Shown in pieces: positions 10,994-16,949 of a stretch of 64,000 nucleotides of DNA. A program made the position numbers and the translations under genes. Numbering within the stretch: the stretch's first letter is position 1; each line of letters begins with the position of its first letter. The notes under the pieces were generated by a model. It saw only the letters and a program-made list of their open reading frames with translations. It ran no database searches and was not told where the DNA came from. Origin of the DNA: Fidelibacterota bacterium (lineage in GTDB: Bacteria > Fidelibacterota > UBA2242). Location of the stretch: contig JBNGDF010000004.1 of assembly GCA_049975265.1 (NCBI GenBank), positions 101,117-165,116 on the forward strand, written 5' to 3'.

Positions 10994-12496
10994 TTACTTC
11001 ATTAGTAACATTTTTTGCAATTCGGTAAAATCTCCGGCGGTCATAATACATAAGTAGACCCCGCTGGAGACGGGATTGCCGTAGTGATCGGTACCATCCC
11101 AGATAACTGACCGGTACCCTGCAGGTTGTATTTCATTTACAAGTGTAATTGTTTCCTTACCAAGGATATTAAAAATCTTTATGATCACATTGACTTCCTC
11201 TTTTAATACAAATGTGATACTTGTACTTGAATTAAAGGGATTGGGGTAATTAGGGAAAAGTTTGAATTGATACAGAGTTTCTGGCGGCTTGTTTTCATCT
11301 TTAAAACCTGACAGGTCTGGAAACTCAATTATATTTGCCCAGATACTGCCATCAGTCCAGGTGTTGAATATGTATCCATTTTTTAAAGCTACAGCTGGAT
11401 GTCCCTGATTTCCTTCTTGTTCTGTATTTACAATAAAATTTTTTCCAATTACTTTCCCACTGGAATCGTAACATTGCCCGTAAATGTCGTTAGTTCCACT
11501 TCGATTATCCGCCCAGGTAATTACAAAACAACCCGATTTATCCATTGCAATTGCCGGAACAAACCATGATGTACTGTCATTGTCTTCCTCGTTTACGATA
11601 AAATTAGTACCGTGAGCTTCACCATCCCGGTATAATTGACAGTAAAGATTATAGTCTCCCAGACGATTATCCTGCCAAACTACGGCGAAAATATCACCAG
11701 ATGAATCAATTGCAACCGCGGCATTTCCATGATAAGCGCTGTCGGTATCATCACTGATTTTGAAGTTTGCACCTTCCGCCGTCCCATCATTTTTAAACAA
11801 CTGACCATGGATACCCTCTTCTCCATATCGTCCTTTTTTCCAGACAATAATAAAATCTCCGGCTTCATTCATGGCAATTGCCGGATTCCAGATTTCTTCA
11901 TGATATGGCTGATTAATCCGTAGAGCAATACCTAAAGAGTCGCCTTCTGAACCGAATCTCTGAGCATAAATCCCGCGCGGAGTATACCAGTTTGCCCATG
12001 CAATTGTGAAATTCCCGGATCTATCCATGCCTACAGCAGGATATTCACCACTAGTTACAGCTTTTATTTGGATATTATTTCCCTGAGGTTCAGCATAGCT
12101 GTTATATTGCTGAAAGTAAATAACAGATAATCCCCATGTGATAATAAAATTACCTGCATTATTAACATCAATAGATGTAGGTAACATCGGAGCTCCCTCA
12201 CCGTACATTTCCTTATCATTGATCCTAAACTTCGGCGTTAATGGGCTGCCATCATTTCGATATAGCCGACCCCATATCTCTGTGGTCGAAAATTGAGAAT
12301 CAATATCTATCGTGGTTGTCCAGACCACAACAAAGTTACCCTCTTTATCAACCCCAATGGCTGGAAAATTATGGAATGCACTATCGGATGAACTCTCAAT
12401 CCAAAAATCAGGAACAACCTGTGATACACCTGGATTTTCAGCAAATACTAATGTAATAAAAAAAATAAAAGCAAGAGAGAACGTATGTTTTTTCAT
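10994..12496 (-). CDS. Secreted beta-propeller-like repeat protein with a FlgD/T9SS-type C-terminal domain
   Basis: Signal peptide; about 7 repeats PAxxxDxxGNFxxxW...IYxQxY; C-terminal NYPNPFNSST...WDGTD...SSGVY...KMLLMK. Confidence 0.88.
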   Translation of the reverse strand: MKKHTFSLAFIFFITLVFAENPGVSQVVPDFWIESSSDSAFHNFPAIGVDKEGNFVVVWTTTIDIDSQFSTTEIWGRLYRNDGSPLTPKFRINDKEMYGEGAPMLPTSIDVNNAGNFIITWGLSVIYFQQYNSYAEPQGNNIQIKAVTSGEYPAVGMDRSGNFTIAWANWYTPRGIYAQRFGSEGDSLGIALRINQPYHEEIWNPAIAMNEAGDFIIVWKKGRYGEEGIHGQLFKNDGTAEGANFKISDDTDSAYHGNAAVAIDSSGDIFAVVWQDNRLGDYNLYCQLYRDGEAHGTNFIVNEEDNDSTSWFVPAIAMDKSGCFVITWADNRSGTNDIYGQCYDSSGKVIGKNFIVNTEQEGNQGHPAVALKNGYIFNTWTDGSIWANIIEFPDLSGFKDENKPPETLYQFKLFPNYPNPFNSSTSITFVLKEEVNVIIKIFNILGKETITLVNEIQPAGYRSVIWDGTDHYGNPVSSGVYLCIMTAGDFTELQKMLLMK

Positions 12497-12522
12497 TATG
12501 TCCCCGTTATTTAAAGTTTAGT

Positions 12523-12548
12523 TCATATGACCATAGGAGACTTAAATT
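12523..12548 (+). repeat. Left terminal inverted repeat
   Basis: 21/26 match to the reverse complement of 14211-14236. Confidence 0.82.
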
Positions 12549-12573
12549 CAAACAATCCAAAAAGGAGTCTTTT

Positions 12574-13374
12574 ATGGTCGACACGAAATTTAATTATGGC
12601 ATCAAGAGGCTGGAATCCAAGACAGCCCGGAATGCCATCATTCAAAAACTGTCTCATGATTTCAATCTCACAGCGATTATTGCTGAAGCCTTTTATCAAC
12701 AGGTTGCCTGTTATTTCAACGAACATGCCAATGTTACTCTATCCTCCGGTGAAGTTGCCTATGAAGCTGTCGCTGCTGATGAACCCGCCGGTAAACATAT
12801 CCGGCTGACCCGCAAAGTCACCGTTCGTTTAAAACTCCTGGATTTCAATGAAGACTTTGAAGCACTGGCCAATTACGGATTGGCCGGGCTCAGGCAACAT
12901 CGGCTGGAACGACTCTCACGGCAGGCTTACGATCAGGGCGCTCTGCTTTCATACGAAGATCTGGCGATGCTTCTGACCACCAGCCCTTCTACAGTCAAAA
13001 GAGATGTTTATCATCTCAAACACCAGGGCAAATTCATCATGACCCGTGGGCAGAAACATGATATGGGTCCCGGTTTAAGCCACAAATCCATCATTATCGA
13101 ACTCTACCTGAAAAACTATACCTTTACCGATATTGAACGCAAAACCAATCACTCCGAAACATCCGTTAAACGCTATCTGGCGGACTTCGTCCAGGTAATC
13201 ACTCTGCTGAAGCAGAACTTCTCGCTCAATCAAATCCGCCTGATCGCTCAAAAGTCCGAACGTCTGATCAGAGAATATCAGCAGATCTACCGGGATTACC
13301 AGAAACAGAACAACCAGCGTTTAGACGAACTCCTCAATCCCAATAAAAAAAAAGAGGAGCAGCATCATGACTAA
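12574..13374 (+). CDS. DUF1670-type protein A
   Basis: QAYDQGALLSYEDLAMLL...TRGQKHDMGPGLSHK...TNHSETSVKRY; AAGGAG RBS. Confidence 0.82.
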   Translation: MVDTKFNYGIKRLESKTARNAIIQKLSHDFNLTAIIAEAFYQQVACYFNEHANVTLSSGEVAYEAVAADEPAGKHIRLTRKVTVRLKLLDFNEDFEALANYGLAGLRQHRLERLSRQAYDQGALLSYEDLAMLLTTSPSTVKRDVYHLKHQGKFIMTRGQKHDMGPGLSHKSIIIELYLKNYTFTDIERKTNHSETSVKRYLADFVQVITLLKQNFSLNQIRLIAQKSERLIREYQQIYRDYQKQNNQRLDELLNPNKKKEEQHHD

Positions 13375-14176
13375 AGTGCCAACCAAAGAACAAATTCAAT
13401 TAAAACGATTCCGGCGTCTCAAGAGTAAAAGCCTGCATCAGGTATTGACCTATCGCTTCCTGAATCACTACGGCTACGATAAAGGGGAAATCACTGTCAA
13501 AGCCATTGTGGATGATATCCTCAGCCTCATGGAAAACTACTTTCTGCTTTCTCCAAAACCTGACGGATTACAGTTCCTCAACTATGGTTACCTGACATGG
13601 ATGGCGGTTCCAGTGGATGAATACCCCCAAAGGGGCAAAACCATTGCCGCCACCAGACTCAAACCCATCTTGCTCTCCTTTATCACCGATGACGATATCA
13701 CCCATATTGCCAGGGGCTATGACGCCAAATCATTGCGTAAAAAGAAACTCTTCAGATGGGTCGATCAAGCCTTCGACCAGGGCGCTCTTTTAACCCAACT
13801 CGATCTGGCCGCCCTCCTGGGTTGTTGTGATGCCGTCGTCTCTCAATATGTCCAGGAGATCCAGAAAGATACCGGCAAAATACTCCCAACAAGGGGGAAT
13901 ATCCATGACCTCAGCGGCGCGATTACTCATAAAAAGGAAATCATTACCCTCTATCTCGAAGGATACCTGACTCCGGAAATCGCTACCAAAACCAACCACT
14001 CCAAAGAAGCTGTCGATAGATATATCAAAGATTTCCATCGCGTTAAACTCCTCTGGGAAAATAACATCAGAGATCCGGAAAAGATGGCGCAGGTCGCCCG
14101 GTTGTCCAAACGGGTCGTTCAACAATACATCGATCTCTTGCCAAATAAATCTCGATTTTCAAAAAACATTGCGTAA
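13367..14176 (+). CDS. DUF1670-type protein B (paralog of A)
   Basis: QAFDQGALLTQLDLAALL...TRGNIHDLSGAITHK...TNHSKEAVDRY; GAGGAG RBS; overlaps ORF A by 8 bp. Confidence 0.82.
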   Translation: MTKVPTKEQIQLKRFRRLKSKSLHQVLTYRFLNHYGYDKGEITVKAIVDDILSLMENYFLLSPKPDGLQFLNYGYLTWMAVPVDEYPQRGKTIAATRLKPILLSFITDDDITHIARGYDAKSLRKKKLFRWVDQAFDQGALLTQLDLAALLGCCDAVVSQYVQEIQKDTGKILPTRGNIHDLSGAITHKKEIITLYLEGYLTPEIATKTNHSKEAVDRYIKDFHRVKLLWENNIRDPEKMAQVARLSKRVVQQYIDLLPNKSRFSKNIA

Positions 14177-14210
14177 ATTTATGTCACGCTTTTTATCACT
14201 TACGACGAGA

Positions 14211-14236
14211 AATATGATCCTCCTGTGGTCATATGA
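14211..14236 (-). repeat. Right terminal inverted repeat
   Basis: Reverse complement is TCATATGACCACAGGAGGATCATATT. Confidence 0.82.
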
Positions 14237-14238
14237 TA

Positions 14239-14380
14239 CTATTTCATTAAAACCATCTTTTGTGACCTGGAAAAATCACCGGCAACCATAATGCACAAAT
14301 AGATGCCGCTCGGTACCGGATTCCCGGAATGATCAGTTCCATATTAATAACGATAATGTAGTGAAAGATTTCTTTGTCAT
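14239..14380 (-). pseudogene. Internally deleted secreted-protein paralog (signal-peptide start joined to a FlgD/T9SS-type C-terminus)
   Basis: GGAG RBS + MTKKSFTTLSLLI, then out of frame GTDHSGNPVPSGIYLCIMVAGDFSRSQKMVLMK*, 25/33 identical to the C-terminus of 10994-12496. Confidence 0.8.
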
Positions 14381-14786: not shown

Positions 14787-16949
14787 TTAAAAAGCATGTC
14801 CGATCGAAAGATACAGCAGACCGCGGTTTCCAAAATCGTAGCCGTAGTCGACGGAAACCGGTCCGATGGGCGTAGGTATCAGCACACCGATCCGGGCACC
14901 AGCCCGCATATCGGTCCAGTTGAAGGTGTCGAAACCATCCCAGACGTTACCGGTCATAATGAGAAAATTCGCATAAACACCCTCGGTCAGATCGGTCCGG
15001 TAGCCGATACCCACCGCCAGCATGACATTGCCCCAGAATTCATCCTGATGGTAGCCGGGCAATGAATTCGGACCGCCGAGGCGAAAACGGTCGTAGTGAC
15101 ACAACGCCCGGGAGAGATATCCAAAATTCAGATTGGTGTAAAAGGTATGGCGGTCACTGTAGGTCTCGTATACCGTGGATTCCACCAGCAGTTTGTCGGT
15201 CTGCTTTAATTCATCTTCGCTGAAGCCGTGTTCATAGAGTACATTGTTGCGGCGTCCGCGCCGGGGAGCGTCCGGATCATCGGTGTTCTCCACAATGATT
15301 CGGGCAGTCAGACTGGCGGTGTTGATTTTATCATTGGTAATGGAGTAGAGGCTGTAGTTTGTATTTTCATAGGTGCGGGTGTTTTCGATTTTAACACCCA
15401 GTGCTGTCAGACCGACCCGTCTGACCTGGACCCCGGCATTGAAGTTAAAACCGTTCCGGTAAAAATTACCGTAACCGATCCGTTTGCCATTTTCATAGAG
15501 TGGCACTGTCTCATATTTATGATACAGCGAGGAATAGCCGGTCAAGGTGGTGGTGAAAATCCGGGTTGACCGGGTATTCCACTCCAGTTTGCGATGCAGG
15601 TCGCTGACGGTCAGGGAGAACTGATTGTCAATGCCGATGCCCAGCAGATTGCGGTAATTGGCGGCGACAAAGGCGCCGGCTTTGCGCTCGGTATCGTAGC
15701 GGGCACCAAAGGAAAAGAGGATATTCTCCTCTTCTTCCACGTGAATGATAATATCGGTGGAATCAGCGGTTTGATTCGCAAAAATGATAAACGCAGTCTG
15801 AAACAGCCCGGTGCTATACAGGTTTTTCAGGCTCTCCCGGGCTCGGGTGGAATTCCAATGCTCATTTTCCCGCAGCAACAGCTCCCGCCGGATAATGTAC
15901 GGTCGGGTTTTCTGATTGCCTCGAATGTGAATATTCCGGATGACTGCGCTGTCCAGATCACGGATTGCTGCGGGCAGATAGTTCGCTGCCAATTTTGAGG
16001 AATCGGCGTAAGTTCGCAGCTCCGTTAAAAAGGGCTGTGTGGCTGCATAGCCCCGCCGGATGAGGGAATCGACCGCCTGAAAATCGGCGGAGGAGTATTG
16101 TTCAATTTCCGGGTGAATCAGTATGTCCGCGAGCGGTAGGTTGCGGGTGTCCGTAAAATATGCCAGGGTGTTCATTGCCTGATTGAAATAGGAGAGCAGA
16201 TTGACATTTTCCGGGATGTGGCTGGTCTTGCTCGTTACGTCTACTGCAATTATGAAATCGGCACCCATGTCGGCGGCTACGTCGGCGGGAACATTATTGG
16301 TCAGACCACCATCCACCAGCAGCAGCGAATCAATCCGCACCGGTGCAAATATAATCGGAAACGCCGAGCTGGCGACGATTGATCGGGCAAGACTGCCCTT
16401 TTCCAGCACCACCGGCTTGCCGCTACGGATGTCGGTCGCCACCACCCGGAAGGGAATCATCAGACTGTCAAAATCACCCCCCGAAGCGTATTCCGGGGAG
16501 ATCAGAATCTGGAAAATGCGCTCCTCCAGACGCTGCGTGGGCAGCAGGTTGCCCGGGAAGACGACATTGAACTGCTCGTCAAACTTCAGCGTGAACAGCT
16601 CCGGTAATGCGCCGATTTTCTGGGAAACAAACTCAATGTCGCGATAGGGTTCCGCCGAGAACAGCTTGTTCCACCTGGTATTGCGGACAAGGTTCTCGAT
16701 CTCTTCCGCCTTATAGCCCGCGGCGAACAGACCGCCTACCAGCGCTCCCATGCTGGTTCCGACAATTATATCCGGATAAAAGCCGATTTCCTCCAGCGCC
16801 CGCAGGACACCGATATGGGCAAAACCCCGCGCACCACCGCCACTCAGCACCAGAGCGGTTTTCGGCTTTTCCGCACTCAATCCACCGTCATTCAGCAGAC
16901 CGATCAGAAAGCAGCACAACAGGATTTTTCCCCTCAGTCCGGTTTTCAT
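14787..16949 (-). CDS. Patatin-like phospholipase with POTRA and Omp85 barrel (PlpD/type Vd-like)
   Basis: LSGGGARG, GTSMG, DGG motifs; POTRA (IRGNQKTRPYIIRREL); C-terminal TPIGPVSVDYG...IGHAF. Confidence 0.92.
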   Translation of the reverse strand: MKTGLRGKILLCCFLIGLLNDGGLSAEKPKTALVLSGGGARGFAHIGVLRALEEIGFYPDIIVGTSMGALVGGLFAAGYKAEEIENLVRNTRWNKLFSAEPYRDIEFVSQKIGALPELFTLKFDEQFNVVFPGNLLPTQRLEERIFQILISPEYASGGDFDSLMIPFRVVATDIRSGKPVVLEKGSLARSIVASSAFPIIFAPVRIDSLLLVDGGLTNNVPADVAADMGADFIIAVDVTSKTSHIPENVNLLSYFNQAMNTLAYFTDTRNLPLADILIHPEIEQYSSADFQAVDSLIRRGYAATQPFLTELRTYADSSKLAANYLPAAIRDLDSAVIRNIHIRGNQKTRPYIIRRELLLRENEHWNSTRARESLKNLYSTGLFQTAFIIFANQTADSTDIIIHVEEEENILFSFGARYDTERKAGAFVAANYRNLLGIGIDNQFSLTVSDLHRKLEWNTRSTRIFTTTLTGYSSLYHKYETVPLYENGKRIGYGNFYRNGFNFNAGVQVRRVGLTALGVKIENTRTYENTNYSLYSITNDKINTASLTARIIVENTDDPDAPRRGRRNNVLYEHGFSEDELKQTDKLLVESTVYETYSDRHTFYTNLNFGYLSRALCHYDRFRLGGPNSLPGYHQDEFWGNVMLAVGIGYRTDLTEGVYANFLIMTGNVWDGFDTFNWTDMRAGARIGVLIPTPIGPVSVDYGYDFGNRGLLYLSIGHAF

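Follow-up and report, generated by a model that had tools for sequence, protein, structure and literature searches.

Can two genes of a protein family without an assigned role make up a mobile element by themselves? The question is raised by a locus in a 64,000-nucleotide stretch of a Fidelibacterota genome (contig JBNGDF010000004.1; the whole stretch analysed is referred to as the window), where an initial annotation, made by reading the sequence, described an insertion sequence-like unit built only from two paralogous DUF1670 genes and proposed that their products are themselves the transposase. To our knowledge, known insertion sequences are moved by a handful of catalytic domains, and we know of no function attached to DUF1670 (PF07900).

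The two proteins and their predicted folds

ORF A (12574-13374, plus strand, 266 aa) and ORF B (13367-14176, plus strand, 269 aa) overlap by 8 bp and fill the unit, A starting 51 bp from position 12523 and B ending 60 bp short of 14236. Their products share 37% identity across 185 aa (E 1e-29), so that the layout of two overlapping paralogous genes was recovered as first described. Both proteins match DUF1670 (E 9e-58 and 3e-61; 195.6 and 207 bits, against a curated PF07900 cut-off of 25), which bears out the family assignment originally made from a sequence signature.

The AlphaFold models of the two proteins (pLDDT 79 and 83, pTM 0.50 and 0.54) predict the same architecture, namely helices at the start, followed by a small sheet, a winged helix-turn-helix (HTH) and two HTH modules. 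Structure searches matched HTH and winged-HTH domains only, with best Z scores of 6.1 and 6.6, which fall within the noise range of the tool, and with the first 100 residues barely covered; at this model quality (pTM 0.50-0.54), the RNase H fold was not among the top structural matches and the integrase catalytic fold was not among the matches, all of HTH types. The top match, the winged helix of topoisomerase VI A (Z 6.1, 62 residues), was discarded as a generic winged helix within that noise. Foldseek against the PDB gave no match at E <= 0.001, sequence searches of the PDB matched only an HTH-like repeat protein, a structural search of a viral library returned one match (E 5.6e-4, TM 0.15), and an atlas search leaving out PF07900 reached a best score of 0.80, which is chance level. 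The search for a catalytic fold suggested in the initial annotation, in short, matched only HTH-type domains.

At the level of profiles, no DDE family exceeded its cut-off for A or B or was among the 25 families listed, of 69, for 92 homologues, with only weak matches in the HTH region; the DEDD profiles of the IS110 family in Pfam and NCBIfam matched neither A nor B and were absent from the same 25 listed families; and the resolvase domain of serine recombinases had no profile match in A or B, nor among these 25 of 69 families for the 92 homologues. The sole serine conserved above 60% (S247) is located in an HTH, and the His-hydrophobic-His motif is absent, the conserved His residues being 23 apart. 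Profile searches and His spacing thus agree with the first impression that no DDE/DEDD, HUH or serine recombinase motif is present.

Ends and junctions of the element

The inverted repeat by which the unit had been delimited (12523-12548 and 14211-14236; 26 nt, 81% identity) was recovered exactly, with 16/17 matches in its outer part and 21/26 overall, and is the longest among the 79 inverted-repeat pairs in 3.8 kb. These ends are not due to chance, since the same ends were found again at more than 100 other loci. The unit of 1714 bp (12523-14236) drawn from the repeat nonetheless has its ends too far in: junction parsing, the geometry of empty alleles and a 1747-nt contig place the whole element, outer extensions included, at 12513-14242 (plus strand, 1730 bp). 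From left to right, it comprises a 7-bp extension (12513-12519, plus), a partly palindromic sub-terminal box of 13 bp that is a putative protein-binding site (12520-12532, plus), the two genes, a second 13-bp box (14227-14239, minus) and a 3-bp extension (14240-14242, minus). It is flanked by two matching copies of a dinucleotide (12511-12512 and 14243-14244), which are TT as read and AA on the strand of the target gene, the left one being the original copy of the first two bases of a lysine codon. On the target-gene strand, the order is therefore bases 1-2 of the last codon, the 3-bp extension, box, genes, box and the 7-bp extension, after which bases 1-2 are repeated and followed by the remainder of the codon and the old stop.

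Among parsed junctions, the dinucleotides are identical at both ends in 106 of 112 loci and differ in six, the matched ones being AA in 97 cases, TA in four, CG in three, and AG and TG in one each. This count derives from 115 distinct parsed loci, three of them without one flank, and leaves out duplicates as well as 39 loci in which an end was missing, the contig edge was too close or the junction was unparsed. The parser is anchored on the layout of boxes and extensions, and its geometry agrees with an unanchored alignment of the ends and with the empty alleles. Apart from this pattern, one copy (L004), with both ORFs broken, is flanked by a direct repeat of target DNA of about 33 bp (L004:520-548 and L004:2278-2312), far beyond the usual dinucleotide, which may reflect either an assembly artefact or an unusual event.

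Insertion into the last codon and a rebuilt stop

The insertion point lies inside the last codon of genes encoding T9SS tails, where the lysine codon and the stop are rebuilt, a strict target choice that had escaped the initial annotation. In the window, the target is the remnant of a 34-codon T9SS/FlgD-type tail gene (14239-14343, minus) whose last residues are KMVLMK. The 3-bp extension, together with the next base, finishes its lysine codon and brings a new stop, TAG (14239-14241, minus), and the stop codon that had been placed 2 bp outside the element is actually part of it. Sequence and junction reconstruction locate the original lysine codon and TAA stop of the target at 12507-12512 (TAA at 12507-12509, minus), moved to the far end of the element, opposite to the rebuilt stop. 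Further downstream of the target and outside the element, a gene for a 500-aa protein with a T9SS type A sorting domain (10994-12496, minus) scores 34.2 bits against TIGR04183 (cut-off 23); this protein and the target protein at locus L035, the two flanking proteins tested, are both above that cut-off. The opposite orientation ascribed to the element relative to its surroundings is true of its immediate neighbours (10994-12496 and 14787-16949), both on the minus strand.

Across loci, with stricter flanks, gene ends are found at 95 of 107 sites, and T9SS/FlgD-type tail genes occupy 92 of the 107, against 82 of 303 lysine-ending ORFs of the host genome under the same loose classifier. The 12 other sites score high for the upstream motif (median percentile 0.95), with A at -17 in 11 of these non-tail sites and a purine at -12 in all 12, one or two of them being perhaps clipped tail genes. 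Given this persisting likeness to the upstream motif, recognition of the target is likely at the DNA level; the motif is degenerate at codon third positions. Right-end remnants survive at tail genes once the rest of the element is lost, and the six unpaired boxes that were retrieved are all remnants at tail-gene ends, a survival expected if the end of the element now carries the stop. With the target regenerated, the host protein is left unchanged and the site stays open to further hits; serial insertions at a regenerated site were found at L109, L291 and L003.

Two sets of loci stand apart. Four Poribacteria copies (L081, L090, L097 and L131) are inserted in palindromic repeat-like sequence rather than in tail genes, and three phage contigs (L195-L197:2495-2540) carry a long box-like palindrome upstream of a gene, with no DUF1670 near, which is probably an unrelated operator.

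Mobility, copy number and selection

With ORF B as query, 80 loci (of 151 confirmed) were retrieved from species genomes and 79 from metagenomes, spread over several phyla. Two long-read Poribacteria chromosomes contain seven (G061) and eight (G065) exact box pairs with differing flanks, all 15 enclosing DUF1670 genes only, so that the expected copies with the same boundaries and different surroundings do exist, at 7-8 complete copies per chromosome. The copies are 98.8-100% identical within G061, 99.2-100% within G063, 99.95-100% within G064 and only 90-100% within G062 and G065. In sequencing run X1, which may be related to the source sample, the 1747-nt contig spans 12511-14246 at a depth of 20 and continues into three different left flanks, whose depth is 3-6.

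Regarding empty alleles, the flanks of the L035 site are contiguous in two of 19 orthologous loci, with one AA when the site is empty and two when it is filled; no exact empty allele of the window's own insertion site was found among the relatives' loci examined, so the empty site that the initial annotation called for was obtained for L035 and not for the window. In three of five same-genus genomes, the patatin gene lies about 250 bp or less from the next conserved gene and the entire 10.9-14.7 kb block is absent. The host genome (2.86 Mb, 66 contigs) holds a single copy of the element, and DUF1670 is patchy in relatives, occurring in eight of 61 genomes, and in 20 of 250 across the phylum. 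As a separate observation, the host genome contains about 69 ORFs with T9SS-type tails, 58 of them lysine-ending, yet one site is occupied.

Both genes are under purifying selection, with a dN/dS of 0.04-0.14 in each of the 20 pairs that could be measured; the other eight of the 28 pairs were saturated. Annotated plasmids and phages gave no match. The ends of DUF1670 pairs are conserved and their positions are not syntenic; neither fixed synteny without conserved inverted repeats nor the constant company of a canonical transposase, either of which the initial annotation had set against a mobile element, was found. Multiple copies, variable flanks, empty alleles, conserved ends and low dN/dS uphold its description of a mobile unit consisting of nothing but two DUF1670 genes. 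The element family is real and recently active, and its mobility is close to certain.

In three pairs of loci (L050/L051, L055/L067 and L049/L064), one flank is common and the other differs, which suggests inter-copy recombination or adjacent rearrangements.

Breadth of the family

A DUF1670 profile search at E <= 0.001 retrieved 1595 clusters (50% identity), and the family is present in bacteria and archaea. It includes double DUF1670 proteins of 500-660 aa and triple ones of 930-950 aa, with no catalytic family attached in the 19 scanned. In P0124, P0125, P0129 and P0130 (930-950 aa), the first of the three modules is degenerate, and in P0239 DUF1670 is fused to a DnaG-type zinc ribbon. Two further subfamilies (five and two elements examined), about 26-31% identical to the proteins of the window where measured, have other boxes and genes co-directional with the target, and keep 3-bp and 6-bp extensions, the doubled dinucleotide and mostly the same target. 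At L003:561-597, L016, L291, L109, L132 and L121, elements of one subfamily are inserted at the site rebuilt by another, or next to an older end, giving nested and serial insertions.

In the literature outside subscription journals, a full-text search for DUF1670/PF07900 found no paper, and no DUF1670 element family appeared among the papers listed by searches on such elements. In the main text of a survey of archaeal insertion sequences (PMC13343696), the string 'DUF' is absent. Within literature that comprises neither subscription journals nor ISfinder, the DUF1670 element family is undescribed.

Possible control of expression

Ahead of ORF A, a leader hairpin (12529-12579, plus), in which 12529-12543 pairs with 12565-12579 (z -4.3), is predicted to hide the ribosome-binding site and the start codon. 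The inner left end pairs with one or the other in all 65 distinct leaders (mean z -3.1), in a survey that had six loci without a parsed start. Among 20 leaders of the main clade, pairing is seen in 91.5% of cells, G-U pairs included, against 35-46% in slid controls, with both sides changing in only two of 10 pairs; RNAalifold found no consensus structure for 31 leaders of mixed subfamilies. These pairings suggest that the hairpin may limit the translation of ORF A, which recalls the leader structures limiting expression in IS10 and IS50. The leaders of the second subfamily (L293-L299) have a very long and stable 5' hairpin of about 90 nt ahead of ORF A.

Near the end of ORF A, a run of nine A (13345-13353, plus) from which the B frame is open constitutes a candidate slippage site that would give an A-B fusion. 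At every one of the 91 distinct junctions, the A-run is a point from which the B frame is open, and 66 of these runs have at least seven A; a +1 shift is needed in 44, mostly with 8-10 A (nine in the element of the window), and a -1 shift in 47, mostly with shorter runs ending in G. The open frame and the natural fusions in the family make a rare A-B fusion plausible. As a sigma-70 promoter, the predicted joint scores weakly (8.4 vs 7.75 of 12 matches).

A candidate active site

Which residues could perform the chemistry? In 92 distant homologues (24-42% identical to B), D181 is conserved in 89, H188 in 92, K189 in 91, H211 in 91 and Y219 in 92, H188 and Y219 being strictly invariant and the other three nearly so; their counterparts in A are D163, H170, K171, H193 and Y201. 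The other strongly conserved acidic residues are, in our interpretation of the conservation, at apparent helix caps. The first module of triple fusions and of related double ones retains the scaffold residues R130, Q138 and P174 and either is without the D-H-H-Y set or is not aligned that far, while every later module retains it; being lost together in degenerate modules and kept in the others suits an active site. HUH enzymes use two metal-ligand His residues, an acidic residue and a Tyr nucleophile. The D-H-H-Y set would accordingly be compatible with His-His-Asp metal ligands and a tyrosine nucleophile, that is, HUH-like chemistry on another fold. Nevertheless, Y254, equivalent in position in the second HTH, is nearly as conserved (89 of 92), so Y219 could be structural.

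From this set and from the missing helpers, it is likely that A and B are themselves the recombinase or transposase. The IS110/IS1111 transposase family (PF02371) is absent from four of five genomes (G000, the host, G031, G061 and G065, of which G061 and G065 are multi-copy), the fifth, G028, having one IS110-family gene, and serine recombinases (PF00239) are absent from two of five (G062 and G065). XerC/D-like tyrosine recombinases are present in all 13 related genomes scanned, and such universal host enzymes are possible partners.

Comparison with known systems

The closest likeness is to the IS1111 group of the IS110 family, for which Siddiquee et al. (bioRxiv 10.1101/2024.04.26.591405) and Durrant et al. 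(PMC10849738) served as comparators; the former describes sub-terminal inverted repeats of 11-13 bp, extensions of 7 bp (sometimes 6) and 3 bp, and the formation of circles. As far as these accounts go, DUF1670 elements share with IS1111 the sub-terminal repeats, the 7(6)- and 3-bp extensions, a fixed target and orientation and a short core. Unlike IS1111, they have two DUF1670 genes without a DEDD transposase, and their target is degenerate at codon third positions. Also unlike IS1111, they appear to have no seek or bridge RNA, since the 3' non-coding region, 66 bp in the window, goes down to 38 bp (38-232 bp among the 33 loci listed) and is unconserved, so that many members could not accommodate a guide RNA; Rfam gave no RNA match in the element.

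Other resemblances are partial. A dinucleotide at both junctions is also a feature of the serine-recombinase elements IS607 and Tn4451, whereas DUF1670 elements are without a resolvase domain or a conserved catalytic serine. A 2-bp repeat at the ends and an HTH-rich DNA-binding region recall IS630/Tc1-mariner, but here TA occurs in only 4 of 112 loci and AA in 97, with CG, AG and TG as well, the ends are asymmetric and no DDE domain was detected in the proteins. IS1 and IS3 likewise combine overlapping ORFs, two in number, and a slippery site rich in A; in the DUF1670 element, the second ORF is a paralogue of the first and not a DDE catalytic domain. The proposed chemistry, with two His and an acidic ligand and a Tyr nucleophile, is like that of the HUH/Y1 transposases of IS200/IS605; the His-hydrophobic-His motif is missing in DUF1670, and the HTH scaffold, the inverted boxes and the doubled dinucleotide differ. 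Judged from its sequence, the DUF1670 element has IS1111-like ends and an IS1/IS3-like gene layout and, for every family compared here, does not pass the protein test that defines the family.

How the element might move

Taken as a whole, the explanation that we prefer, by a little more than an even chance, is a site-specific last-codon element whose two DUF1670 proteins form its own recombinase. The HTH domains of A and B, or of an occasional A-B fusion arising from slippage at the A-run, would bind the palindromic boxes, and the same domains would bind the degenerate target motif (about -20 to +3). Each module would then cut with its Tyr219 or Tyr201 nucleophile beside an Asp-His-His site, the cuts on the two strands being staggered by 2 nt at the core dinucleotide. 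Joining of the ends would yield a circle that carries a single core copy, and this circle would recombine into another target whose core is identical; the leader hairpin would keep translation low.

Is the dinucleotide a core carried by the element or a duplication of the target? The core, and with it the circle, is moderately favoured. Dinucleotides of the TA and CG types track the element lineage and AA is kept on one side in five of the six mismatched pairs, both of which suit an element-carried core. The sister elements L024 and L025 are 97.5% identical and have different matched dinucleotides, AG at either end of the former and AA at either end of the latter, for which a plain 2-bp duplication is the simpler explanation. 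The circle junctions that the initial annotation had proposed to look for did not turn up: neither circle nor tandem junctions were present in contigs of eight runs (contigs drop rare forms) or in five multi-copy genomes, the four matches in viral contigs were not near a DUF1670 gene, and among 151 Poribacteria-class genomes, 16 had matches, the nine loci listed being chance flanks or unrelated, with no joint. The same proteins could also be imagined to act by linear transposition, cut-and-paste or copy-in, with a 2-nt stagger, no circle and the dinucleotide as a target-site duplication. The matching of the dinucleotides, including nine that are not AA, the L024/L025 sisters and the lack of joined ends in the contigs and genomes searched all speak for it, and in four of the five mismatches that contain AA, the copy that has changed is the non-coding one, as expected from neutral decay. 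On the other hand, the unequal 7- and 3-bp extensions outside the boxes follow the IS1111 pattern, no DDE profile rises above its cut-off and the conserved acidic residues besides D181 sit at apparent helix caps. We consider this route unlikely.

If A and B were only DNA-binding adaptors recruiting a universal host enzyme (a Xer recombinase, a topoisomerase or a repair nuclease), the exclusive matching of HTH-type folds and Pfam families and the tyrosine recombinases in every related genome scanned would be readily understood; however, the strictly invariant positions are occupied by D, H, H and Y and not by surface-docking residues, degenerate modules lose all four of them, and one common host partner is less likely for a family found in both bacteria and archaea, which leaves this reading rather improbable. 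A non-autonomous passenger, with DUF1670 as cargo moved in trans by a conventional (e.g., IS1111-like) transposase acting on the same ends, would account for the IS1111 geometry, and the G028 host does carry an IS110-family gene. Yet PF02371 is missing from G000, G031, G061 and G065, every exact box pair encloses DUF1670, the unpaired boxes are remnants at tail-gene ends and the box sequence varies with the DUF1670 subfamily, so this idea is largely refuted and has very little probability left. Least credible is that A and B are very divergent tyrosine recombinases forming a XerC/XerD-like heteromer, as their paralogy and a His...Tyr spacing in the first C-terminal HTH that resembles the C-terminal motif of those enzymes might suggest: hhalign gave a probability below 3% against 29 XerC/D-type proteins, never on the catalytic motif, and an overlap of 2 bp falls short of the 6-8 bp of tyrosine recombinases. 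A loxP-like 13-8-13 tyrosine-recombinase site was likewise discarded, given that the insertion point falls within the last codon and that the profile test failed.

Counting together the preferred explanation, linear transposition and divergent tyrosine recombinases, we are fairly confident that the element's own proteins perform the chemistry. The most far-reaching proposal is put forward tentatively, at somewhat under an even chance: that DUF1670 proteins would act as recombinases for a new class of insertion sequences in bacteria and archaea, with a Tyr nucleophile and an Asp-His-His site on an HTH scaffold and no relation to the DDE, DEDD, HUH, serine or tyrosine recombinases, with independently acquired IS1111-like ends and a degenerate coding motif read by protein alone.

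If true, this would mean a new DNA cutting-and-joining chemistry and a function for a family of 1595 clusters of unknown function. Insertion into the terminal codon of members of a large gene family, with the stop rebuilt, amounts to a harmless-site strategy. Moreover, the system is small, with two 270-aa proteins and ends of about 20 bp; it lends itself to direct tests in E. coli and might be of use as a compact integrase with site specificity.
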